Origin: Candidatus Sumerlaeia bacterium
Lineage (GTDB): Bacteria > Sumerlaeota > Sumerlaeia > SLMS01
Reading direction: 5' to 3'
DNA: 31,539 bases
NCBI GenBank assembly: GCA_038208905.1
Contig: JBBQYG010000029.1
Span: 1 to 31,539, forward strand
The notes under the pieces were generated by a model that was given only the letters and a program-made list of their open reading frames with translations, did not search any database and was not told the DNA's origin. The position numbers and the translations under genes were made by a program. This document shows, piece by piece, positions 119-27,343 of the stretch (its first letter is position 1; every line of letters begins with the position of its first letter).

Positions 119-3100
119 GTGATCTTCAAGTCCGTCTTTGGCAAGAACCTCAAGCAGCCCGAGGCCCGCAGCCAGGCCATCGAAAACGCCATCAAGCAGG
201 CCCGCGCCGCCTACAAGGTACGGCCGATCGAGGAGGCGCGGGAACCGGTCCTCAAGCTTCAGGATCTGTTCGTGGAGCAGGAAATCGACCGCCTGGAATT
301 GCTCTATGCGGCGGATTCCTCGCTGACGGGCGACGAGTTCTGGCTGCGCGAGATCGTGACGATCCTCCTCCGCGCGCCCTCTCTGAAGGAGGACGAAACC
401 AGCTATCTTCTGCGCCTGTGTCTCCTGGAGCCCACGAAGCTGGAACTCTGGCAGCGCGTTTTTCGCGAGCGGCGCAACAGCTCCAACCCGATGGGGCTCG
501 ACCAGGCCCACGAGCAGTGCGCGCTGGCCCTGCTTCCGTTCTTTCCGGGTCAGTACGAATCGCGGTGGCCCGATCACGGGCGCGAGTCGGAGGCGCGCGC
601 CCTCTTCCTGCTGTGCCTCAACCACGCGGTGGATCAGGTGGTGACTCTGGGGCGCGACGACGACCCGGCGGGGGAGCTTCTGGACGCGGCGGTTCGCCTG
701 CTGCCAGAGCGACACGACGCCCTCTCGGCCCTCGCGCACCGCATTGTCCGCCTGGACGACCACCGCCCCCAGAGCCTGGGCATCGTGCTGGAATCGCTCA
801 TGGGGAATCCCGCGGAGCACGACTTAAGGATGTGGGCGGCGGGCGCGCTGCTGGGGATCCCCGGCCACTTCGAGGAGGGGCTCTCCCTCCTGCGGCAACT
901 CCACGAGGCCGGCGACCGCAGCCCCACGCTGCTGCAGGCGTTGATCTCCGCATTGAAGACACTCGACGAAATCTCCGAGGGCGACGTTCCCCTCTTCCGG
1001 GAGTATTTGGCCGCGAATCCCGGAGACATTCGCGCCGCGGACTTGTTGGCTGAGCGCCATGCCCGGCGCGAGGATCTGGGACAGGATGCCATCCGGCTCT
1101 ACCGCCTCGCCGCCGCCAGCAGCCCGCGCCGCACGCTCTATCTCCGCCTTCTGGGTCGTGCGTCAGCCTCGCGCAGCGACTGGTCCCAGGTCATCGAAAC
1201 CTTCAACGAAGTCCGCGCCGCCGGTCAGGAAACCGAAGACATCATCATCCCGCTCGCCACGGCCTACTCCGAGTTCGACCGCTCCGACGCCGACGCGCTC
1301 GCCGTTTACCGCCACGCCATCGAGCTGGGAAGCAGAAAGCCCGAGATCCACGCGCTGCTTTGCCGCGAACTCTACCGCACGGCGCCGCGCGCGCCCGACA
1401 GCATCGCCCAGTTCACCCAAAGCACGTTGGCCTGCCCCGAATGCTCCTGGGCCCAGCTCGGACTTGCGTCCCACTGCCTGGAAACAGGCGACGCGGGGCG
1501 CGCCTTGGACGCCGCGGTGGCGCTGCTGGAGCGCAACCCCCAGGACAAGGAGGCGCGCCGCATCGGCGGCCGGGCGTTGGCCGCGGATTTCTCCCGCCGA
1601 CGGATGGGTCGCCTGGCCAACGTCGCGCCGGAGGCACTGCGAGCGGTCTTCGAGGAGGCCCACGCCCAGGCACCCGACGCGGGACCGGTGGCGCTGGGTC
1701 TCGCGCGGCGCCGCGTCGCCGACGGCGTGCGCGACTCGGAAACGGCGCGGCTCCTCGGCGAGGTCTGCCGCCGCAACCCCGACGCCCACGACCTGCGCAT
1801 CGCGCGGGCCGACATCCTGTGGGAGATCGGCCAGCGGCCCAACGCGGCTGAACTCTATCGCGAGCTGCTGGAGCGATGCCGCGCCGCCGAGAATCACGAG
1901 CTTCCCCGCGGCGTCACGGCGGAGATACGCCATCGCGCCCTTATGCGCTTCGCCGACTGCATCGTGCGCCCGCCGGGTCCCAGCCCTGCCGACATCGAGT
2001 TCCTGATGGAGGCCGCCGCGCAGAGCGACGCCCCCGCCGAAACCGTCCTCGCCGCGGCACGCTCCGTCATCGATCTGGAGGCGGACCATCCCGCGCGCCT
2101 CCCACTCTTCCAGCGCGCGCTGCTCCTCGCGCCGGCGGACCTCAAGATCGAGCGCGCCGTCGCCGAGGCCTTCGCCGTCCAGGGGAATCCCAAGCCGGCC
2201 ATCGCCTTGGCCGTGCGTCTGCTCGGCATGGGACGCGACGACGAGGAGACCGTGAGCCTGCTGCGCAGCATCCGCGATCTCGTCAACCCCGAGCAGCTTA
2301 GCCGAGGCCTCATCGCCCGGCTCCGCGCAAGCGCCAACCCCGAGCGCCATTCGCCGCCGCTCCTCCTCGCGGTGGGCGAGCTGATCGCGATGGCGGGCCT
2401 CCTCGAGCCGGAGGACCTGCCGATCCTCCAGCGCCTGCACGAAAGCTTCCCCCGCAATGTGCGAGTGCTCCGCCGGCTCGCGGAATGCCTCACGCTCGCC
2501 GGCCATCACGAGGCCGCCGCCGAGTTCTATGTCGAACTCATCGAAGACAATCGCGACGACGACGAGTTGATCCTCCAGATGGCCAAGACCAGCGCCCGCC
2601 TGGGCCGCCGATCCAGGAGCGACCTGCGCGTCGCCCAGCGCGCCGTGCATCTCGAGCCCGACAATCCCGAGCTGATCCTCCACCTTGCCGCCATCGAACT
2701 CGATACCGGCCAGTTCCCCGATGCGATCCGCCGCCTCGACACGATTCTTCGCCAGGACCCAGACCTGCACCCGCGCATCATGAATCTGCTCGAGCGCTAC
2801 AAGCGCCTGAGCACCGAGCAGGGCGAGCTTGGACTCCTCTTCGCGCGGCTCCACATCCGCGCGGGGCGCGCGGACCAGGCGATGGCAGTCCTCGGCCGGC
2901 TCCAGCAGAACTACCAGAAGTACCTTGGCGAATTGCTCTCCTGCTATACGGAGATCATCGCCATCGGCCTTACCACGCCGCGCCCCTATGTGGAGCGGGC
3001 GGTGCTCTATCGCCTGAGCGGCTGCGTGGACGAGGCGGTGGAGGACATGGCCGCGGCGCATCGACTCGCGCCCGATAATATGGACATCCTGGGGGAGTAC

Positions 3101-4345
3101 GCCGACACCCTGCGCCAGAAACTCCATACACAGGACCACGTCGATGCCTCCACCGCGGTGCGCTGCGGGGAACTCTTCATGGAGGCCGGCGACGACGAGG
3201 GTGCCTTCGAGATGGCCGATCTGGCGCTGGGTGCGAACCCCCACGACCAAGCCGCGCTCCATCTCCTCGCCCGCCTGCAGCTCAACGCGGGTTCGCTCCA
3301 CAACTGCTGGGACACGCTCAAGAAGCTCCCCGCGCGGGAAAGCGCGATGGGGATGCTCCAGGAACTCGCGCGCGCCTTCGCCGAACAGGAGGAACATGGA
3401 CTTGCCGTGGACGTCACCACCGAGGCGATCCAGATCGCGGGGCCCCAGACCGACCTCCTCCAGCAACTCCGCACGCTCTATCAGGAGCAGGCCCGTAGCT
3501 CGGAGGGCGCCCACCAGCGTCAGCGCATCCTCGGTGCCCTCTCCGAGCGGGCACAGGACCGATACGAGCTGCGCGAGCAGCTCGGCAGTGGCTCCATGGG
3601 CATCGTGTACAAGGCCTATGACCGCGAGCTGGACGAGATCGTGGTGCTCAAGATCATGCCGGAGCACTTCGCGCGCGACTCAGAGGCGCTGGCCCGCTTC
3701 CGCAACGAGGCCAAGGCCGCCCGCAAGCTTGCCCACCCCAATATCTGCCGCATCCACGACATCGGCGAGGAGTCGGGCCGCAAGCACATCAGCATGGAAT
3801 ACGTCGCCGGCGGCGACCTTCGCCAGTACCTGCGGGACCGCGGCGGCAAATTGCCCCAGAAAGAGGCCATTGCCATCGCCCGGGAGGTCGCCCTCGCCCT
3901 CGCCCACGCCCACGAGGAGGGCGTCCTGCATCGCGACATCAAGGCCGCCAACATCATGCTGACGGGATCGGGCCGCGTGAAGCTGAGCGACTTCGGAATC
4001 GCCTCGCTGCTGCAAGCCGCCAACCGATCCGTCGGCGCATCCGACGCCAGCACCAGCGTCATCGGCACGCCACTCTACATGAGCCCGGAGCAGTTCGACG
4101 GCGAATACCTAACAAAGGCGTCCGACCTTTATTCCTTCGGGGTGCTGCTGTACGAGATGCTTTCGGGATCGCCGCCTTTCACGCGGGGCTCGATCGCCTA
4201 TCACCACCGCTTCACGCCCCCCCCGCCGATTCCCAATGTGCCCGCATCGCTGTGGGCGGTCATTGAGAAGCTCCTCTCCAAGAAGGCCGCCCAGCGCTAC
4301 CAGTCCGCGGAGGAAGTGATCGCGGCCCTGGACGAGTTCCGATAG
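119..4345 (+). CDS. Large TPR/alpha-helical repeat protein with C-terminal Hanks-type Ser/Thr protein kinase (1408 aa)
   Basis: GTG start. From about residue 1148 (nt ~3560) the full set of kinase motifs: LGSGSMGIVYKA, VVLKIM, HPNICRIHD, HRDIKAANIML, VKLSDFGIA, GTPLYMSPEQ, SDLYSFGVLLYEMLSG. The first ~1140 aa are Ala/Leu/Arg/Glu-rich with TPR-like turns (LERNPQDKEA, RRNPDAHDL, HLEPDNPEL, RLAPDNMDI). No TM segment seen. Confidence 0.92.
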   Translation: MIFKSVFGKNLKQPEARSQAIENAIKQARAAYKVRPIEEAREPVLKLQDLFVEQEIDRLELLYAADSSLTGDEFWLREIVTILLRAPSLKEDETSYLLRLCLLEPTKLELWQRVFRERRNSSNPMGLDQAHEQCALALLPFFPGQYESRWPDHGRESEARALFLLCLNHAVDQVVTLGRDDDPAGELLDAAVRLLPERHDALSALAHRIVRLDDHRPQSLGIVLESLMGNPAEHDLRMWAAGALLGIPGHFEEGLSLLRQLHEAGDRSPTLLQALISALKTLDEISEGDVPLFREYLAANPGDIRAADLLAERHARREDLGQDAIRLYRLAAASSPRRTLYLRLLGRASASRSDWSQVIETFNEVRAAGQETEDIIIPLATAYSEFDRSDADALAVYRHAIELGSRKPEIHALLCRELYRTAPRAPDSIAQFTQSTLACPECSWAQLGLASHCLETGDAGRALDAAVALLERNPQDKEARRIGGRALAADFSRRRMGRLANVAPEALRAVFEEAHAQAPDAGPVALGLARRRVADGVRDSETARLLGEVCRRNPDAHDLRIARADILWEIGQRPNAAELYRELLERCRAAENHELPRGVTAEIRHRALMRFADCIVRPPGPSPADIEFLMEAAAQSDAPAETVLAAARSVIDLEADHPARLPLFQRALLLAPADLKIERAVAEAFAVQGNPKPAIALAVRLLGMGRDDEETVSLLRSIRDLVNPEQLSRGLIARLRASANPERHSPPLLLAVGELIAMAGLLEPEDLPILQRLHESFPRNVRVLRRLAECLTLAGHHEAAAEFYVELIEDNRDDDELILQMAKTSARLGRRSRSDLRVAQRAVHLEPDNPELILHLAAIELDTGQFPDAIRRLDTILRQDPDLHPRIMNLLERYKRLSTEQGELGLLFARLHIRAGRADQAMAVLGRLQQNYQKYLGELLSCYTEIIAIGLTTPRPYVERAVLYRLSGCVDEAVEDMAAAHRLAPDNMDILGEYADTLRQKLHTQDHVDASTAVRCGELFMEAGDDEGAFEMADLALGANPHDQAALHLLARLQLNAGSLHNCWDTLKKLPARESAMGMLQELARAFAEQEEHGLAVDVTTEAIQIAGPQTDLLQQLRTLYQEQARSSEGAHQRQRILGALSERAQDRYELREQLGSGSMGIVYKAYDRELDEIVVLKIMPEHFARDSEALARFRNEAKAARKLAHPNICRIHDIGEESGRKHISMEYVAGGDLRQYLRDRGGKLPQKEAIAIAREVALALAHAHEEGVLHRDIKAANIMLTGSGRVKLSDFGIASLLQAANRSVGASDASTSVIGTPLYMSPEQFDGEYLTKASDLYSFGVLLYEMLSGSPPFTRGSIAYHHRFTPPPPIPNVPASLWAVIEKLLSKKAAQRYQSAEEVIAALDEFR

Positions 4346-10520: not shown

Positions 10521-11858
10521 CTACGCCTTGGTGACCCGCCCCCGCCCCGGCGCTCGTCCCGCCATCGCGTTCCGCGTGTCCAGAATCAGGCGCGCGCGTG
10601 CCCCCAGCGCATCGTAGTCGATGGACGAGTGATTCGTCGAGATCACCACCGCGTCGTAGTCCCCCGCGCTGGAGAGGGACACGCTCTCTCGCCCCGCCAG
10701 ATGGGCATACTCGCGTGTCTGCTTCACCACCGGGATGTGGTCGTCGTGATAGTCCACCTTCGCGCCGCGCTCCTCCAGCAATTCGATCAGCTTGAGCGAC
10801 GGGCTCTCGCGCAGGTCGTCCACGTCCTTCTTGTAGGCCAGACCCACCAGCAAGAGGCGGCTTCCGCGAAGCGCCTTCCCGTCCTCGTTCAGCTCCTCCA
10901 TCAGGCGGGCCACCACATAATAGGGCATCGAGGAATTGATCTCGCCGGCGAGCTCGATGAACTTGGTCGGCATGTCGAACTCGCGCGCCTTCCACGTCAG
11001 GTAGAAGGGGTCGATGGGGATGCAGTGCCCGCCAAGGCCCGGGCCCGGGTAGAACGGCATGTAGCCAAAGGGCTTGGTGGATGCCGCGCGGATCACCTCC
11101 CAGATGTCGATGTCCATGCGGTGAAAGACCATCTTCAACTCGTTCACCATCGCGATATTCACGCAGCGGAAGATATTCTCCACCAGCTTGGTGGCCTCCG
11201 CGGCCTGGGTACTGCTGACGGAGACGATCTTCTCCACGATGGCGCCATAGAGCGCCTCCGCGATGGCCAGCGCCTCGGGCGTCTGCCCGCCGACAACCTT
11301 GGGAATCGTGGCCGTGGTGTATTGCTTGTTGTTGGGATCCTCGCGCTCGGGCGAATACGCCACGAAGAAATCCACGCCGGACTTCAGGCCGGAGAGCCGC
11401 TCCAGAATCGGCACCATGATTTCCTCCGTGGTGCCGGGATAGGTGGTCGATTCCAGCGACACGAGTTGACCCCGGCGCAGGAACTTGCCCACCGACTCCG
11501 ATGTGCGCTCGATGTACGTCATGTCCGGCTCGCGGTTCCGCGTCAGCGGCGTCGGAATGCACAGGATCAGCGCGTCGCACTCCGCCGCGGCGGAGAAGTC
11601 CTGCGTCGCGCGGAACTTGCCGCCGCGAATGACAGCGGCGATGCGCTCTCCCGGCAGGTATTCGATGTAGGACTTCCCCGCGTGCAGTGCCTCGATCTTG
11701 CGCGAATCGATGTCCAGCCCCACCACTGGGAAACCCTTTTCCCCGAAGTGCAGGATCAACGGCAACCCCACGTACCCCAAGCCAACCACGCCCACCACGG
11801 CCTCGCGGCGTTCGATGCGCTGAAGGAATTTTTCGGTCAGGACCTGAGTGTCGGACAT
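10521..11858 (-). CDS. Nucleotide-sugar dehydrogenase (UDP-GlcNAc/ManNAc 6-dehydrogenase, WbpA/WecC type)
   Basis: Rossmann GLGYVGLP, ESTTYPGTT, YSPEREDP, KLVENIFR, catalytic GGHCIPIDP and GLAYKKDVDDLRESP. Confidence 0.93.
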   Translation of the reverse strand: MSDTQVLTEKFLQRIERREAVVGVVGLGYVGLPLILHFGEKGFPVVGLDIDSRKIEALHAGKSYIEYLPGERIAAVIRGGKFRATQDFSAAAECDALILCIPTPLTRNREPDMTYIERTSESVGKFLRRGQLVSLESTTYPGTTEEIMVPILERLSGLKSGVDFFVAYSPEREDPNNKQYTTATIPKVVGGQTPEALAIAEALYGAIVEKIVSVSSTQAAEATKLVENIFRCVNIAMVNELKMVFHRMDIDIWEVIRAASTKPFGYMPFYPGPGLGGHCIPIDPFYLTWKAREFDMPTKFIELAGEINSSMPYYVVARLMEELNEDGKALRGSRLLLVGLAYKKDVDDLRESPSLKLIELLEERGAKVDYHDDHIPVVKQTREYAHLAGRESVSLSSAGDYDAVVISTNHSSIDYDALGARARLILDTRNAMAGRAPGRGRVTKA

Positions 11859-11973
11859 GGGAACTCGCGTGTTTGGGATGATGCGCCAGCGTGGTCTGAG
11901 GGGCGGCGGGGTGGCAACGGGGGATTGATTGACAGATTGGCGTTCCCATCGCTTTCCCTTTGCCAGCCCTCGG

Positions 11974-11989
11974 TGGCGCGTTCCATGCT
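11974..11989 (+). promoter_or_regulatory. Candidate sigma54 (-24/-12) promoter for the radical SAM / amidotransferase operon
   Basis: TGGCGCG-TTCC-ATGCT versus consensus TGGCACG-N4-TTGCW, with exact GG-N10-GC spacing, about 60 bp upstream of 12050. A second GG-N10-GC motif lies at 11938-11953. Confidence 0.45.
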
Positions 11990-12049
11990 CTTTCCCGCTT
12001 GGGCAGGCCGGGGTGAATCAATCCCCGCGGCCCGGCCGGAAGGGTTTCC

Positions 12050-13216
12050 TTGAGCGTCTTCGACCGTCCCTACAAGCGCCTGTTCAACACGCTCGTTTCC
12101 ACGGGAGACAAGTTGCTTGGGAATTCGCGCGTTCTGGCGAGGCCGTTGCGCATCCATATCGAGGTCAACGACCTCTGCAACCTCAAGTGCCCCCATTGCC
12201 CGCGCGAAAACCCCGACATCCCCAAGAACACCGGCCACATCCCGCTGGAGGCGGTGAAGAATCTCGTCCCCTGGTTTGAGACCGCCACCTACGTTGGCCT
12301 CGCGGGAAACGGCGAGCCGTTTCTGCATCCCGATATCATCGAGATCCTCCGGGTCATTACCGGCGCGGGTGCGACGCCGTCCGTCATCAGCAACGCGACG
12401 CTGTGGAAGAAGCTCGACATGATCGACAAGATCGCGGGCATCGGGCCGATGCTGCTGATGGTCAGCGTGGACGGCGGCACCAAGGAGACCTTCGAGAAGT
12501 GGCGCCTGCGGGCGAACTTCGACGAGGTGCGCGAAAACCTCCGCGCTCTTCGCGAAGCCAAGGCCCGAAAGGGCACCGTGTTCCCCATCGTGAATTTCAT
12601 CTCCTGCCTGATGAAGGAAACCATCGGCGAGGTGGAGCAGATCGTGGACGTGGCCGCGGAGGCCGACGCCAAGGTGATCATCTTCCAGAACATGTATCCC
12701 TACAACAAGCTGATGGAGGAAAACCGCGTCCGCGACATGGACGAGTGCCGCCGCGCCATCGCCCGCGCCCGCAAGCGCGCCGAGCCCCACGGCATCCGGA
12801 TCGACTGGCTCCCGATGAGCGAGGACGTGGATACGCGCGGCACCGAGGGCGGCGCCTACGGCTCCATCACCAGCGAGGACGCCGAGAAGCACCTCTCCGC
12901 CAATGGCAACGGCCACCATCACGAGAGCGGCGCGCGTGAGCACTACCACTGCGACTCCATCATGCACCAGATTCACGTGACGGTGCAGGGCAAGATCAAG
13001 TATTGCTGCTTCTGGACCGAGGGCGAAATCGGCGACCTAAAGACAGACGATTTCGGCGACCTATGGAACGGGGAGAAGTGGCAGCAGCTCCGCCGCGACC
13101 TGAAGCAGGGCAACAAGCCCAAGTCGTGCGAGGGGTGCCACAACCTCGTCGTGCATAGCCCGCGCAATATCGTCCGGGCCGGAATGAAGGATATGAAAGA
13201 CCTCTGGGGACAATAG
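12050..13216 (+). CDS. Radical SAM protein with C-terminal SPASM/Twitch domain
   Basis: CNLKCPHC (CxxxCxxC), GNGEPFLHP and SVDG. C-terminal C...GKIKYCC...IGDL...WN...CEGC. TTG start. Confidence 0.9.
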   Translation: MSVFDRPYKRLFNTLVSTGDKLLGNSRVLARPLRIHIEVNDLCNLKCPHCPRENPDIPKNTGHIPLEAVKNLVPWFETATYVGLAGNGEPFLHPDIIEILRVITGAGATPSVISNATLWKKLDMIDKIAGIGPMLLMVSVDGGTKETFEKWRLRANFDEVRENLRALREAKARKGTVFPIVNFISCLMKETIGEVEQIVDVAAEADAKVIIFQNMYPYNKLMEENRVRDMDECRRAIARARKRAEPHGIRIDWLPMSEDVDTRGTEGGAYGSITSEDAEKHLSANGNGHHHESGAREHYHCDSIMHQIHVTVQGKIKYCCFWTEGEIGDLKTDDFGDLWNGEKWQQLRRDLKQGNKPKSCEGCHNLVVHSPRNIVRAGMKDMKDLWGQ

Positions 13217-13223
13217 CGAAACG

Positions 13224-13961
13224 ATGACCCGCAAGCCACGCATCGGCGTTACCACCAACTTCAAGCACGAGGAAGTTTACTGCGGCGTGCCGCGCATCGA
13301 CCTCGCCACCAACTACACCGACGCCGTCGCGGCGGCGGGCGGCGTCCCGATGCCCCTTGTCGATCACGGCGCCGATTCCGCCGCCAGCTATATCGAGATG
13401 ATCGATGGCCTTCTCCTCACCGGCGGACCCGACATCGATCCCGCGCGCTATGGCGCGGAGCCGCACCTCAAGTGCAAGCTGGTCCACCCGCGCCGCGAGA
13501 ACTTCGAGGCCGAGTTGACGCGCCTCGCCATCGAGCGCGGCGTGCCGATCCTCGGAATCTGCCTCGGGCACCAAACGATCAATGTGGCGCTGGGCGGAAC
13601 GCTGATCCAGCACCTTCCGGACTCGGTGCCGGGCTACCCGCTGGAGCACGCGGGCGACGGCAAGAATCCGATGCCGCGCCACGGCGTCGCGCTGGATCCG
13701 GCATCGCGCCTCGCCGCCGTGCTCGGCACTCACGCGGTGGAAGTCACCACCAGCCACCACCAGGCCGTTGACCGCGTTGGCCGCGACCTCCGCGTCGTCG
13801 CCCACGCCCCCGACGGCGTCATCGAGGCGATGGAAAGCGCCGACGGCGACCAGGTCGTCGTCGTCCAGTGGCACCCCGAGTTCCTCGCGGCGGAGTCGGA
13901 TGTGCACCGCCGGTTGTTCGAGGATTTGGTGGAAAGGGCGCAGCGACGCGCCCAAGCCTAG
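13224..13961 (+). CDS. Class I glutamine amidotransferase / peptidase C26 (gamma-glutamyl-gamma-aminobutyrate hydrolase, PuuD-like)
   Basis: DGLLLTGGPDIDP, nucleophile elbow GICLGHQ, SHHQAV and VQWHPE. Starts 7 bp after the radical SAM stop. Confidence 0.92.
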   Translation: MTRKPRIGVTTNFKHEEVYCGVPRIDLATNYTDAVAAAGGVPMPLVDHGADSAASYIEMIDGLLLTGGPDIDPARYGAEPHLKCKLVHPRRENFEAELTRLAIERGVPILGICLGHQTINVALGGTLIQHLPDSVPGYPLEHAGDGKNPMPRHGVALDPASRLAAVLGTHAVEVTTSHHQAVDRVGRDLRVVAHAPDGVIEAMESADGDQVVVVQWHPEFLAAESDVHRRLFEDLVERAQRRAQA

Positions 13962-14530
13962 CGCTCCCTGCGCCCGTCAAGCCCGCGAAAGAGTTCCGGC
14001 CAACTCACAACCAGCTCCGAAAGCAATCCCTCCGCACAAAGCTGAGGCCCACTGGAACTGGCAATTCGTCCCCCAGCCGTATACACGTCGATCACGCGTC
14101 GGCGCGGATCGACGATCCACACTTGCTCCGTTCCATAGTCAAGATACCAGGCGCGCTTCTGCCCGATCTCGCTGGCTGAGTTGGAGGGCGACAACACTTC
14201 CACCGCGACGATGGGAGAACCAGCCACCCAGGTGTCGGTCGTCTCAGCGGACAACGTGAATACGGCGACGTCGGGAGATACAAGGATCGCCGGATCGATC
14301 GAAAGGGTGAAACCGGCCCCCTCGATGGAAACGAAAAGGTCTTCCCTTGCACAGAGATGCCTCTCCATCATTCCGCCAAGGCGGCTTGATACGATGCTGT
14401 GAAGCCAGTTCGATGGACTCATCTCGATCAATTCTCCCTCCCATAATTCCGCCCGCTTCAGGTGCGCGAACTCGGGGCCATAGAGTTCCTCCGGCGTGAC
14501 AAGGCGAGCTTTTGCCTGGGCGGCGGACAT
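13958..14530 (-). CDS. Uma2 (DUF820) family endonuclease, copy 2 (190 aa)
   Basis: ELWEGELIEMSP..H, SPDVAV, VAVEVLSPSN and KRAWYLDYG.EQVWIVDP. Start set at ATG 14530 by homology to copy 1. Confidence 0.88.
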   Translation of the reverse strand: MSAAQAKARLVTPEELYGPEFAHLKRAELWEGELIEMSPSNWLHSIVSSRLGGMMERHLCAREDLFVSIEGAGFTLSIDPAILVSPDVAVFTLSAETTDTWVAGSPIVAVEVLSPSNSASEIGQKRAWYLDYGTEQVWIVDPRRRVIDVYTAGGRIASSSGPQLCAEGLLSELVVSWPELFRGLDGRRER

Positions 14531-15090
14531 GGTTATTCCTCCAGATCGTCCTCGAAGATTTCGGCCAGCGGAAACGCCAAGCCATCGAGGACGCCCTCGC
14601 AAGTTACCGCGCCCGCGGTGATCGTCATGCCGCGCCCGTCGGCGAAATACACCTCCAAAGTCTTGCGACGCGGGTCCACGATCCACACCTGCTCCGCGCC
14701 GTACTTCAGGTACCACTGGCGCTTCTTTGTCATCTCGCTGCGCGAGTTGGAGGGGGAGAGGACTTCCACGGCTACGATGGGGGCGCCAGCGATCCACGGG
14801 GGGCGGCCACTGCGTCGATATACCGATACGTCAGGGGAGAGGAGTAGCGGCGGATCCTCTCGAAGCAGAAAGCCGATGCTCTCCGGCCCGACTCTAAGAT
14901 TTCTGTCTCGTCCGAGGTGCTGGCGAATAAGTACGATGATTTCGGTGACGACAGAACCGTGGTCACCACTCGATGGGCTCATTTCAATCAGTTCTCCATC
15001 CCAAAGCTCGGCCCGCTTCAGGTGCGCGAACTCGGGGCCATACAGTTCCTCCGGCGTAACGAGGCGTATTTTAGTCTGGGCGGCGGACAT
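14411..15090. repeat. Direct repeat of about 120 bp (14411-14530 and 14971-15090, offset 560) covering the 5' ends of the two Uma2 genes
   Basis: Ungapped manual alignment gives 17 mismatches in 120 nt (about 86% identity), including an identical run gcccgcttcaggtgcgcgaactcggggccata. Confidence 0.9.
14533..15090 (-). CDS. Uma2 (DUF820) family endonuclease, copy 1 (185 aa)
   Basis: ELWDGELIEMSP, SPDVSV, VAVEVLSPSN, KRQWYLKYGAEQVWIVDP and C-terminal VLDGLAFPLAEIF. Confidence 0.9.
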   Translation of the reverse strand: MSAAQTKIRLVTPEELYGPEFAHLKRAELWDGELIEMSPSSGDHGSVVTEIIVLIRQHLGRDRNLRVGPESIGFLLREDPPLLLSPDVSVYRRSGRPPWIAGAPIVAVEVLSPSNSRSEMTKKRQWYLKYGAEQVWIVDPRRKTLEVYFADGRGMTITAGAVTCEGVLDGLAFPLAEIFEDDLEE

Positions 15091-15174: not shown

Positions 15175-17040
15175 TCAGTGCAATTGCCAGTCGTCCACCG
15201 CTGCCGAGGGGATCCAATCAACGCCGCCGATGGCGAAGTTGTCCACCCGCGCCTCGGCGAGATTGAAGGTCCCCATCCTGACCCAGCCCACCCGCTGGGC
15301 GTTGTCGGGTACCGTCCAATTCACGACCGGCGTGCCGGAGCCGTTCTTGTAGATCCGGTACTCAAGCTGAGCGGGGCGCGCGATCACCGACACGCGGAAG
15401 GTGTCACCTGTTGCGATGCCGATCACCTGGTTGAAGGTGTTGATCTGGCCCCACTGGTTTGTGCGGCGAAGAACCACGCGGTTCTGGCGCGCGGCGTCGG
15501 AGACGCTGGTGAAGAACGTGAGCGAGTAGCCGAGCGAGCCCTCGCGGATGCGGAAGTCGAAGTTCGACTCCGCCGTGTTGGCGGAACCCGTCGCGCGATT
15601 CGCATTCGTCACGGTGAAGTCCAGCTCCGCGCGGAAGTCGCCATACACATAGCCCGCCGTGCGCAGCGTCGCGCCGCCGTCGGTCCCCGAGCCCAGCAGG
15701 CGCACCGAGCCACCCGATGCCGACGCCGATCCGGCTGCGGTCGTCTCAACGCGCCAGTGGGGGAGCGGCGCGGCGGAGTCGAGCGACGCAAAGGCGTCCT
15801 CCCACCACTTCGCCGCATGATCGATGGCCCCGCCTCCGCCCGCCATGCTGCCGCGCGGATAGTTCTGCGCCGCGGCAGCCTGGAAACCATACCACGGGTT
15901 CACGCTGGCGTTGGTGGAGGCGATGGACGACTTCTGGCGCAGCAGCGAGTAGTCCAGCCAACCGCCGCCAATCGTGTCGTGGAACACGAACCACATCGCG
16001 CCCGCGATATTGTGATTCGCCAAACCGGGCCACGCGCCGCCGGTTCCCGTGTTCCAGTTGTGGAGCGCCTGGTACGAGGCCTGGGCGAATTGAGCGCCGA
16101 TGGCCGACTCGGTCGCGTTGGGCATGTGCTTGTTGAACTCGGTGATGAACACCGGGCGATCGTTCAGGCCAAACTGGTCGATGATCATCAACTGCTCGCG
16201 GATGTCCTGCATGAATCCATCCGCGCCAAAGTTGCTTCCGCCGGGCTGCGCATAGGCGTGCAGCCCAAAGCCGTCGATCTTGCCGCGATCGCCCACGGGC
16301 ACTGCCTCGATCTGGCGCCAGAGGAACTCGTTGCCGTCCATGTATCGCACGCCCGGCGACGCGTTGCCCGGCGAGTTGGGCTGCATCAGTGCGATCTGCC
16401 GCGGGGGCGCGAAGTTCGGCGTCACCGTGTGGATCGCGTCGCGGACGGCAAGGTAGGTCGCCGCATACTGCGCGGGCGTCGGCTCCCAGGCGATGTTGTA
16501 GGCGCTGGCCCCCGTGTTCCAACGGTTGTTCTCGATCGTGCCCGCGATGTTGATCTCGTTCCCCACCTGCCAGATGCGCGCATGGTTGGCGTGGGTCGTC
16601 GCGGCTGCCGCCGCGGCGCTGGCAAAGTTCGCCAGCGTGAAGGGGTCGTTGTTGGGGCTCCCCACCGACTCGAAAAAGGGGACATTGCGCCCCCAGTTCG
16701 GCTGAAGCCGATAGATCAGCGAATGCCCCTTCCCTCCGCCCGTCACGCGCGCGTTGTGGCCGCCCGCGCCAAAGCCCGAAAACCACTCCGGGCTCATCCA
16801 GATGTCGCGCTGCCCCGCCGGCGAGAGGTTGTCTAAGTGGTTGATCTCCAGCGCCCACACCTCGCGCCCCGGGGCCATCGCCTCCACATCGTCGGCCGTG
16901 GGCGCGTTGGACGCGCTGGGGTCCGTGTCGCCGTACCAGTGTACCCCATAGAGGGAATTCGCGTCGTTGAGCTGGGCATTGGCAGGACCCCCCAACACGG
17001 CGATCAAGAGGAGCGGCAGGACGGTGCAGATCTTCATCAT
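15175..17040 (-). CDS. Secreted clan GH-A-like glycoside hydrolase with C-terminal beta-sandwich (ConA/DUF1080-like) domain
   Basis: Signal peptide ending ANA. Acid/base-like WQVGNEIN, GFGLHAY and nucleophile-like VFITEFN. C-terminal beta-rich domain (YVYGDFRAELDF...ARVDNF). Ends SAAVDDWQLH. Confidence 0.75.
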   Translation of the reverse strand: MMKICTVLPLLLIAVLGGPANAQLNDANSLYGVHWYGDTDPSASNAPTADDVEAMAPGREVWALEINHLDNLSPAGQRDIWMSPEWFSGFGAGGHNARVTGGGKGHSLIYRLQPNWGRNVPFFESVGSPNNDPFTLANFASAAAAAATTHANHARIWQVGNEINIAGTIENNRWNTGASAYNIAWEPTPAQYAATYLAVRDAIHTVTPNFAPPRQIALMQPNSPGNASPGVRYMDGNEFLWRQIEAVPVGDRGKIDGFGLHAYAQPGGSNFGADGFMQDIREQLMIIDQFGLNDRPVFITEFNKHMPNATESAIGAQFAQASYQALHNWNTGTGGAWPGLANHNIAGAMWFVFHDTIGGGWLDYSLLRQKSSIASTNASVNPWYGFQAAAAQNYPRGSMAGGGGAIDHAAKWWEDAFASLDSAAPLPHWRVETTAAGSASASGGSVRLLGSGTDGGATLRTAGYVYGDFRAELDFTVTNANRATGSANTAESNFDFRIREGSLGYSLTFFTSVSDAARQNRVVLRRTNQWGQINTFNQVIGIATGDTFRVSVIARPAQLEYRIYKNGSGTPVVNWTVPDNAQRVGWVRMGTFNLAEARVDNFAIGGVDWIPSAAVDDWQLH

Positions 17041-25512: not shown

Positions 25513-26361
25513 TCATGAGTCGATGGTAAACCGGCACTTTGGGTAGCGACTGCATCCCAAAAAGTTCTTCCCCGCCTGAGGCCCCTTCCTCGCGGTCCGA
25601 CCCACCATCGGATATCCACATCGGGAACATGCCTGTGAGGGGTTGGAGCCCACTTGCCCGGGGCTCGCGTTTCCAACTTCCACCGCAACCGGATCGGGTC
25701 TCGGCGATATGGCCGCTGAGGCGGCGGGTACAACCCGGGGGGGAACGAGGGGCGCCGGCGGCGCGTGCATCTTGCGCAAATTCCGAACGTGCTCCACGTG
25801 GGTAGCCAGCCCCGGATTGAGCCGCTGGCCCTCGATGCTGGCGCGGATACGGGCGACTTCCTCGGGCGAGATGATGGCGACAGTCTTGGACTTGATATAC
25901 CTGACCAGCCCACCCATATGGGTGACGTTTGGCGGCATCTCGGTCTTGAGCTCGGCCTCGCCGACAAAAGCGACGATGGAAAACAGGTAGTGCTCGGGGA
26001 TACCGAACTGCTCGGCCAATGCCTTGGTGTGGCGATAGTTCTGGCGGAGTGGGTTCTGAAAGCGGTACGTCTTCTTGAACAGCTTCTGTGTCCACTGCGC
26101 ATCCCGCTCGCTTCCGAATATCCAGCCGCCCATGTTCTTGGTCTCCACCACAAAGATCCCAAAGACCGACAGGATGACATGGTCGATCTGCGTGGTGCCG
26201 CCGTCGATGCCGATGGTCACATTGGAAAGCCGACTGTAGATCGCGTTGTCAAGGAACAGCCAAGTTGACAAATCAACCTGCTTCTCGCCGATCCACCCCT
26301 TGATGGATGGGGGTTCCATGAACAAATCCAGAAGAAAACGAAGAAAGCCGGTCTCACTCAT
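25513..26361 (-). CDS. NERD nuclease-related domain protein with C-terminal topoisomerase C4 zinc ribbon
   Basis: KGWIGE, TTQIDHV...GIFVVETKN.GGWIFG and FQNPLRQN. C-terminal CSRCGYPMV.R...FLGCSRYPKC. Confidence 0.9.
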   Translation of the reverse strand: MSETGFLRFLLDLFMEPPSIKGWIGEKQVDLSTWLFLDNAIYSRLSNVTIGIDGGTTQIDHVILSVFGIFVVETKNMGGWIFGSERDAQWTQKLFKKTYRFQNPLRQNYRHTKALAEQFGIPEHYLFSIVAFVGEAELKTEMPPNVTHMGGLVRYIKSKTVAIISPEEVARIRASIEGQRLNPGLATHVEHVRNLRKMHAPPAPLVPPRVVPAASAAISPRPDPVAVEVGNASPGQVGSNPSQACSRCGYPMVGRTARKGPQAGKNFLGCSRYPKCRFTIDS

Positions 26362-26404: not shown

Positions 26405-27268
26405 TCACTCCAACATCTCCCACCCCGCCACCCGCGACGCAGTGATCGAGGGGAGTGGGATGGGGGCTATGTTGCCGGGTTCGAAGAGGCCGGTGCTGAT
26501 GGAGATGACGCGGCCGTAGGCGTTGGCGCTGGTGCCGGGCGTGCCGCCGACTCCGTCGAGGGCGTCGAGGACGGGGTAGTCCACGGTGGTGTCTCCGGTG
26601 TTGTTGAAGCCAAAGCCGGAGGGGTCGCCCGGGTTCAATCCGTCGTCGAAGCCGTTGTCGAAGGACGCGATGGAGAGGCCGAAGGTGCTGGTCGGCGTGA
26701 GGCCGATGGCGGAGAGGCTGATGCGCGCCTCCAGCAGGTTGTTGGTGGTGGAGATGAAGCTGTCCACGGTGCCGCCGTCGGTATACCAGGATCCGGCCCC
26801 GACGTCGTGGAAGAACTCGCCCCACGTGATCCCATTCTGGGCGTTGTGGAAGTGGACCTGGTACTCGGGATAGAAGCTGGGCGAGGAGAAGAACGGCGTG
26901 CCGGAGTTGTCACCCAGGAAGTTCATCCCCGAGTCGCCTGGGTTCTGGTCGAGGTCGAAGCCGATGGCGAGGCTGACCTCGTTGGTCACGGTGATGTCGG
27001 CGAACCGCACGAGCAGAAACAGGTTGGTCGCGTCGAGTGTGATGCGCGCCTCGGTGATGTCATAGTTGCCGAGGTTTCCGGCGGCGTCGGTGCGCAGGTC
27101 GCCCGCCTCGCCCTTGTAAATCCACTCGTCGCCATTGACCGCCACATCATGAACGAGGGTCGGCGGCGTCCCCGTCCAGTCCGCCGGATTGCCATCCACC
27201 ACGATGGTCTTGGCGTGGGACGCGGCGGCGAGGGAGGCGACGGCGAGAAGGGCGAGCGGAAGGCGCAT
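26405..27268 (-). CDS. Secreted DOMON/CBM9-like carbohydrate-binding protein (287 aa)
   Basis: Signal peptide MRLPLALLAVASLAAASHA. TIVVDGNPADW, YDITEARIT.D..NLFLLVRF, AIGFDLD and LEARISL resemble glucodextranase DOMON-like domains. Ends SRVAGWEMLE. Confidence 0.65.
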   Translation of the reverse strand: MRLPLALLAVASLAAASHAKTIVVDGNPADWTGTPPTLVHDVAVNGDEWIYKGEAGDLRTDAAGNLGNYDITEARITLDATNLFLLVRFADITVTNEVSLAIGFDLDQNPGDSGMNFLGDNSGTPFFSSPSFYPEYQVHFHNAQNGITWGEFFHDVGAGSWYTDGGTVDSFISTTNNLLEARISLSAIGLTPTSTFGLSIASFDNGFDDGLNPGDPSGFGFNNTGDTTVDYPVLDALDGVGGTPGTSANAYGRVISISTGLFEPGNIAPIPLPSITASRVAGWEMLE

Positions 27269-27343
27269 GGGGGAGGGCTCCGTATTCATGACGATCAAAA
27301 ACATCGGAATCGCCAAGGAGTGGAGCGGTTCGATGGGGGGAAG

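Follow-up and report, generated by a model that had tools for sequence, protein, structure and literature searches.

A short tryptophan-containing C-terminal tail on exported proteins of Sumerlaeota, a candidate sorting or anchoring tag

Prediction of the proteins that a bacterium displays or releases relies mainly on C-terminal sorting signals, and each known one has led to a dedicated enzyme or secretion system. Tripartite C-terminal signals are read by membrane sorting enzymes (for this class, see 10.1101/2023.06.07.544157 and PMC11980579) and include LPXTG with sortase, PEP-CTERM with exosortase, GlyGly-CTERM with rhombosortase, MYXO-CTERM with myxosortase and PGF-CTERM with archaeosortase; they are short, modular and lineage-restricted, follow a linker, occur on signal-peptide proteins of many unrelated families, and have a membrane helix and a basic tail. 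The C-terminal domain (CTD) of the type IX secretion system (T9SS; type A, TIGR04183) is a folded domain with a model length of 72, and serves as a C-terminal address for glycoside hydrolases, peptidases and adhesins that a diderm lineage exports by Sec. The present work concerns a 31,539-nucleotide stretch of DNA (the window) from a Candidatus Sumerlaeia bacterium (assembly GCA_038208905.1, contig JBBQYG010000029.1; 64% G+C), in which two exported proteins, here called A and B (Table 1), carry a similar short tail at ends 11.2 kb apart. The core of this tag is V615-x-D-W618-Q-L-H621 in A and V-A-G-W-E-M-L, followed by one extra residue (E), in B, with the stop codon falling 3-4 residues past the tryptophan in both.

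Sumerlaeota are uncultured and widespread bacteria, thought to degrade chitin and other polymers; the available part of the study reporting this (PMC8092238) mentions signal peptides on their chitinases and describes no C-terminal tag. A search of the literature on Sumerlaeota/BRC1 secretion and C-terminal signals, with subscription papers and supplements outside its scope, found no description of the tag. An original prediction made from the letters of the window alone had proposed that the two tails are one signal, and translation of the minus strand reproduced the coordinates and C-terminal sequences that it gave for both proteins. It was also right that A and B resemble each other nowhere else: no further similarity was seen between them, and neither matches Pfam, NCBIfam or PDB sequences (B gave one sub-threshold Pfam match).

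The tag is a portable tail at the extreme C-terminus, conserved at the protein level and present on exported proteins of many families. Both tails are read here, with a probability of roughly 0.55, as a short sorting or anchoring tag of Sumerlaeota for Sec-exported proteins of the cell surface or the extracellular space. We infer the function and the machinery that would read the tag; export or attachment is suggested since the tag occupies the slot in which homologs from other phyla have T9SS or MYXO-CTERM signals.

Like the tripartite signals, the tag is a short modular signature at the C-terminus, but it has neither a membrane helix nor a basic tail, with 0-2 residues after W-x-x-[Y/F/L] in 109 of 109 distinct tails. 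This places it outside the sortase/exosortase class, and a membrane-embedded transpeptidase, to which it offers nothing to hold, is an unlikely reader. The NCBIfam sorting-domain models gave 0 matches to whole A and B (E <= 1) and to six 40-residue tails (E <= 10), TIGR04183 included, and the same models detected the positive controls, namely MYXO-CTERM in the distant B relative P0337 and TIGR04183 in 15 of 17 distant relatives of the B domain. These scans bear out the earlier view that the tag fits none of LPXTG, PEP-CTERM, GlyGly-CTERM and the T9SS CTD. A search for a hydrophobic C-terminal stretch with basic residues in the 308 genes called from the window and from 26 loci encoding relatives gave 8 matches, none of which read as PEP-CTERM-like. 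The T9SS CTD has the same class of cargo, but the tag is about 8 residues long and predicted to be disordered in A.

Other terminal signals differ in other ways. The beta-signal of outer-membrane proteins (OMPs), read by BamA/BamD, is likewise hydrophobic, at the extreme C-terminus and usually ended by Y or F, and edge-strand pairing is a plausible way for the tag to be read. The beta-signal combines a terminal aromatic residue with alternating hydrophobic positions; the tag has Y or F at +3 in 86 of 109 tails, and its hydrophobic residues lie at -1, -2, -4 and -7 from the end (counted from the tryptophan, V at -3, W at 0, L at +2 and Y at +3) without alternating. The tag does not form the final strand of a transmembrane barrel: the proteins that carry it are soluble TIM-barrel or beta-sandwich proteins. 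The WxL domain (PF13731) also places W-x-L near the C-terminus of surface proteins; it is a folded domain of well over 100 residues with two motifs, found in Firmicutes and attached non-covalently to the surface, and no WxL or T9SS-tail Pfam match was found in the tagged proteins scanned. Peroxisomal targeting signal type 1 (PTS1) and PDZ ligands (for example the YxF tail of OMPs that DegS senses) consist, like the tag, of a few portable terminal residues without a membrane segment, but unlike them the tag has no fixed register to the carboxylate. Substrates of type I secretion are not known to have an N-terminal Sec signal peptide, unlike the bearers of the tag, for which a simple heuristic scores signal-peptide-like N-termini in 50/62 members of family A, 12/12 of family B and 36/43 of a family of CE4 deacetylases described below (signal peptides throughout this work are predicted, by eye and by a simple home-made rule). 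We know of no system in which a soluble receptor reads a short C-terminal motif for bacterial secretion or surface display.

The tail is retained in 51 of 62 homologs of A and in all 11 homologs of B when scored by a loose pattern (W-x-x-[Y/F/H/W/L/I/M] plus 0-3 residues), at overall identities to the window protein of 38-64% in family A and 45-58% in family B. The tryptophan of the tag is at least 90% conserved in A (W618, alignment of 51 sequences) and invariant in B (W283, family alignment of 12 sequences). Pooling of the 109 distinct tails, with W at position 0 by construction, gave S/A/T at -5 in 85, V at -3 in 63, D/G/E/N at -1 in 78, L/I/V at +2 in 77 and Y/F/L at +3 in 98 (Y or F in 86); position +3 is the last residue in 71 tails and is followed in the other 38 by 1-2 residues, mostly acidic or polar (mostly E, D, N and H). 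The consensus is small-small-x-V-x-[D/G/E/N]-W-x-[L/I/V]-[Y/F/L], with no more than two further residues, mainly acidic or polar ones, before the stop. Its core is the tryptophan, the aliphatic residue at +2 and Y/F/L at +3, the valine being less constant, and the motif first proposed needs refining to this extent.

Among 25 tails, the codons for Val, Asp, Leu, Tyr and Phe differ synonymously, which indicates that the constraint acts on the peptide and not on a DNA or RNA element; a shared DNA element generating the peptide was rejected on the same ground. A 13-column profile of the tail reached only about 12 bits even on true tails in a local trial, and is thus too weak to give significance in large database searches. 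An ESM Atlas look-up with residues 600-621 of A returned no usable match.

The frequency of the tag outside families A and B was assessed in the same loci and window, where the 308 genes found by a codon-usage caller left 283 proteins once both families were set aside; these include three antisense artefacts (at loci L005, L007 and L010, in which family A was missed) and the genes of a Verrucomicrobiia locus (L026). The pattern of the original prediction, V..W.[LM].{0,2}$, which was defined on the window, ends 3 of the 283 proteins against 0.024 expected from its internal density of 3 in 104,728 positions (Poisson P = 2.4e-6), an excess at the C-termini of independent proteins. A broader pattern derived from the homologs ends 4 of the 283 against 0.24 expected (P = 1.2e-4), and 2 of 2,979 open reading frames (ORFs) in non-coding frames. 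The independent bearers (Table 1) include a CE4 deacetylase and an M1 peptidase, and near misses were a 503-residue protein ending AAVTDWSLK, a GH3 enzyme ending SSSWLFE and an Amidase_3/Golvesin_C/CBM_11 protein ending GTWWGVK. Bearers of the tag are extracellular-type enzymes and adhesin-like proteins and not a general sample of exported proteins; by eye, signal peptides are present on all four independent bearers. Small proteins with prepilin-type N-termini (containing GFTLIELLIVVAIIAILAAIA) cluster near tagged genes at two of the loci.

Protein A consists of a signal peptide, a GH-A-like TIM barrel, a concanavalin/legume-lectin-like beta-sandwich reaching residue 605, a short linker and the tag. 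Its AlphaFold2 model (mean predicted local distance difference test score, pLDDT, of 92.3) shows the TIM barrel followed by the beta-sandwich. Foldseek matched it to enzymes of clan GH-A type (entries of GH30, GH59, GH79 and GH86) and to domains of the legume-lectin, ERGIC-53 and CBM66 types. In protein B the signal peptide is followed by a CBM9/glucodextranase-like beta-sandwich, and some 30 residues of low-complexity linker lead from there to the tag; Pfam CBM9_1 matches it below threshold (E = 0.047), and the best Foldseek matches of its mediocre model (mean pLDDT 68.6) are 1ug9 and 1i82. Given these folds, the labels GH-A-like for A and DOMON-like for B in the original prediction are reasonable, and its assignment of both proteins to Sec export agrees with their signal-peptide-like N-termini, seen by eye and by the heuristic. 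An alternative upstream start of B is possible at the TTG at 27316.

The tail behaves as a module separate from the domain before it. From the end of the lectin domain of A to the tag tryptophan, the linker varies between 6 and 26 residues across homologs, and in P0038 a BACON domain sits between the two. In the model of A the last strand spans residues 594-605, and pLDDT falls from 56 to 38 over residues 611-621; three orthologs (P0037, P0045 and P0046) keep the domain intact without the tag, and the tail of A is therefore not an integral last strand of its domain. Two homologs of B (P0067 and P0068) end in tandem double tags (..DWELLGGWEFY and ..EWEMIGGWEFF). The interpretation in the original prediction is partly supported, in that exported proteins of unrelated families share one C-terminal tag separable from the domains.

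The position occupied by the tag in B can be compared with that in more distant proteins. When 1.84 billion representatives were searched with a profile of family B, 422 proteins matched at E <= 0.001. Among the best 150 of these 422, the W tail is present on close short relatives of B (P0198 and P0224) and on other architectures (P0222, 772 residues, and P0340, 613 residues). In 17 distant relatives of the B domain chosen for T9SS-like ends, TIGR04183 matches 15 at E <= 0.01, and 14 of these matches exceed its cut-off. A MYXO-CTERM signal (27.4 bits) ends P0337, and several other relatives end in a hydrophobic stretch plus RRR. Since relatives carry these T9SS, MYXO-CTERM or hydrophobic-plus-RRR ends at the same place, the domain of B behaves, by comparison of sequences, like a 'choice-of-anchor' module whose slot in Sumerlaeota holds the W tag.

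As far as names go, the tag is restricted to the Sumerlaeota lineage. Those of the 62 homologs of A that carry names belong to Candidatus Sumerlaeota, to BRC1 or to a SUM1 soil bin, apart from one named just 'bacterium'. Of the 26 loci encoding relatives, 24 have titles with Sumerlaeota, Sumerlaeia, Sumerlaeales, Sumerlaeaceae or BRC1; another has the title 'bacterium', and the remaining one, of Verrucomicrobiia, is a distant match at 25% identity. These names bear out the suggestion in the original prediction that similar tails occur in Sumerlaeota/BRC1. Homologs of the deacetylase at locus L004 provide a comparison within one enzyme family, with 120 listed. Those combining CE4 with Golvesin_C number 43, of which 29 have the W tail, 8 a second type of tail and 6 neither, and 5 of these 6 look like degenerate tags. 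The W tail is present in 0 of the 77 other listed homologs, 21 of which stop within a few residues of the Golvesin_C domain and have no tail. Named matches with the W tail are Sumerlaeia or 'bacterium', and named untagged matches are Burkholderiales, Gemmatimonadaceae/Gemmatimonadales, Marinobacter and Planctomycetaceae.

The second tail is also conserved, is about 11 residues long, and stands in place of the W tag in certain close orthologs from two unrelated families. In CE4 proteins it has the form VP[A/V]G-hydrophobic-G-x-[E/D/N]-stop (P0083, P0086, P0093, P0096, P0099, P0102, P0107 and P0140), and P0096 is the only named Candidatus Sumerlaeota in the CE4 search; in relatives of B, among the best 150 of 422, it has the form [L/V]P-x-ELS-x-[F/L]-x-L-[E/D]-stop (P0202, P0203, P0204 and P0208). 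It is absent from all 26 loci and has no internal match in the 119,986 residues of their proteins. On the CE4 tree the second tail is clustered, with 4 changes, a number as low being reached in 0 of 500 shuffles. It does not form one clade and adjoins sisters of the W type, and the idea of tail 'dialects' as lineage markers is thus unsupported.

Several results weigh against a sorting or anchoring tag of this lineage. The loose tail pattern fails in 11 of the 62 family A homologs: P0049, P0053 and P0064 have a W tail that departs from the pattern, P0050 and P0051 have L or M in place of W, P0037, P0045 and P0046 end at the domain boundary (GGxDW) without a tail, P0058 has a basic tail, P0061 has another ending, and P0027 is partial according to its source. 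The distance from the motif to the C-terminus varies, from the 0-2 extra residues of the pooled tails to 7 in P0177, which lies outside the 109, and strict recognition of the terminal carboxylate therefore fits poorly. The poor model of B draws a weak strand at residues 280-284 (pLDDT 53-66), which makes an intramolecular role possible in this protein. Some close orthologs replace the W tail with the second type, and the restriction to Sumerlaeota rests on the minority of matches that carry names. By a crude signal-peptide rule the tag is present in 2 of 58 positive and 2 of 225 other proteins (P = 0.19), and by a second crude rule in 3 of 88 and 1 of 195 (P = 0.09); the contrast is not significant because such rules score only 2 or 3 of the four independent bearers. 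The analysis identified no receptor, protease or translocon, and no neighbour of the family A gene is conserved across the phylum in the 26 loci, with synteny only among the close relatives L020-L023.

Three Sumerlaeota lineages have a family A gene without the normal tag (Table 1), and the product at L025 stops right after W-E. These genomes would be useful contrasts for locating the machinery.

If the tag sorts or anchors its bearers, Sec export would leave the C-terminal tail exposed, an envelope component would bind it as an extended peptide, and that component would move the protein across the outer membrane or hold it on the cell surface. The tail might pair, as an edge strand, with a beta-barrel or beta-sheet protein, or it might be held by a peptide-binding domain. 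A fuller version, which is tentative and carries clearly less weight than the general reading, would make the tag the address label of a new sorting pathway: a phylum-wide peptide of eight residues with no membrane segment, which a dedicated periplasmic receptor or translocon would recognise in bringing Sec-exported enzymes and adhesins to the surface. Such a tag would be a bacterial counterpart in the style of PTS1 and the functional equivalent of the T9SS CTD in a lineage that would use neither T9SS nor a sortase-like enzyme, and the second tail (VPxG...G-x-E) would then serve as another label, either for this pathway or for a sister one. A portable tag of eight residues would mark the Sumerlaeota exoproteome straight from sequence and would give a concrete query for the machinery through phylogenetic profiling. 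If it is true that it works without a membrane helix, it would be a new architecture among bacterial sorting signals, and it may serve as a very small surface-display tag.

Alternatively, the tail could be a recognition motif for a PDZ-type protease or chaperone of the envelope (Prc/CtpA-like or DegS/DegP-like), serving as a C-terminal degron, a pro-peptide cleaved off during maturation or a folding checkpoint and not as an address. C-terminal-binding PDZ domains read short hydrophobic or aromatic terminal peptides, and the tail is of this kind, being exposed at the extreme C-terminus and flexible in the model of A. This explanation is nevertheless unlikely, as the register to the C-terminus is not constant (0-2 extra residues, 7 in P0177), two proteins have tandem tags, the corresponding slot in other phyla holds sorting signals and not degrons, and the bearers are a selected set of extracellular-type enzymes and adhesin-like proteins.

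Slightly less probable again is a structural or adhesive end-piece without a role in sorting, which would pair as a strand with the last domain of its own protein or with a second copy, or form a small aromatic patch that adheres to polysaccharide, wall or a membrane interface. W and Y/F are typical of binding to sugars and interfaces, most bearers are carbohydrate-active, and the short strand at 280-284 in the model of B would suit such a role. Against such a role, the last domains that precede the tail are unrelated (lectin-like, CBM9-like, Golvesin_C, BACON and the end of an M1 peptidase), the confident model of A shows the tail as disordered, and the tail-less orthologs keep their domain intact; the tail is also present in 0 of 21 Golvesin_C-terminal proteins of other architectures, several of them named from other phyla.

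An inert remnant kept by descent within each family, such as what is left of a PEP-CTERM-like signal after loss of its membrane helix, is improbable. Some PEP-CTERM signals begin ...P-x-x-W-x-L-L, and the second tail, VPxG-hydrophobic-G-x-E, resembles the start of a PEP-CTERM-like signal. Against this, the tryptophan is conserved among family members sharing only 38-63% overall identity, the codons vary synonymously, the tag is present in many unrelated families, and neither TIGR02595 nor any other sorting model matched the six tails even at E <= 10. Chance resemblance, which the short motif and the two examples in the window might have suggested, is already refuted by the excess in independent proteins (3 against 0.024 expected), the conservation of the tail in both families and its rarity in non-coding frames (2 of 2,979 ORFs).

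Table 1. Positions of the tag copies, their proteins, neighbouring genes and related features in other loci (window positions unless a locus is given)
Feature	Coordinates	Strand	Basis or description
Tag copy 1, SAAVDDWQLH	15178..15207	minus	translation; stop codon 15175-15177
Tag copy 2 and end of its linker, ITASRVAGWEMLE	26408..26446	minus	translation; stop codon 26405-26407
Protein A, 621 residues	15175..17040	minus	ORF with strong codon-usage coding signal
Predicted Sec signal peptide of A, MMKICTVLPLLLIAVLGGPANA then QL	16975..17040	minus	by eye and heuristic
Protein B, 287 residues from the MRLPLALL start	26405..27268	minus	ORF; database copy P0065 also 287 residues
Predicted Sec signal peptide of B, MRLPLALLAVASLAAASHA then KT	27212..27268	minus	by eye; heuristic
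Independent bearer	L001:10607-17770		2,387 residues, FG-GAP and Big_3_3
Independent bearer	L004:20396-21673		Polysacc_deac_1 (CE4) and Golvesin_C
Independent bearer	L012:11953-15096		Peptidase_M1 and fn3
Independent bearer	L025:5432-6610		392 residues, no Pfam match
Family A gene without normal tag	L020:9572-11623		ends ..VWASALMLDM
Family A gene without normal tag	L024:9605-11575		ends ..GCEAMTY
Family A gene without normal tag	L025:9947-11785		ends ..VNNWE
Small protein with prepilin-type N-terminus	L001:4326-5069
Small protein with prepilin-type N-terminus	L001:6130-6861
Small protein(s) with prepilin-type N-terminus	L004:2910-6130
Two tandem Uma2-family genes	13958-15090	minus	putative restriction endonuclease-like; directly downstream of A; longest ORFs 13958-14797 and 14533-15090
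NERD gene	25513-26361	minus	nuclease-related domain fused to a topoisomerase-type zinc ribbon; directly downstream of B
UDP-glucose/GDP-mannose dehydrogenase-family gene	10521-11858	minus
Radical SAM/SPASM gene	12050-13216	plus
Peptidase_C26/glutamine amidotransferase gene	13224-13961	plus
TPR-kinase gene	119-4345	plus	1,408 residues; long TPR region and C-terminal Ser/Thr kinase domain
TPR-kinase relative	L002:7652-9916
TPR-kinase relative	L003:1-933

The window holds further genes around those of A and B. The longest ORFs of the two Uma2-family genes overlap, and the start of the downstream gene is therefore probably later than listed. The dehydrogenase-family gene adjoins the radical SAM/SPASM and Peptidase_C26 pair, and the genes at 10521-13961 may form a small modification cassette. 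At two other Sumerlaeota loci, the stretch just upstream of the family A gene encodes relatives of the TPR-kinase protein found near the start of the window.

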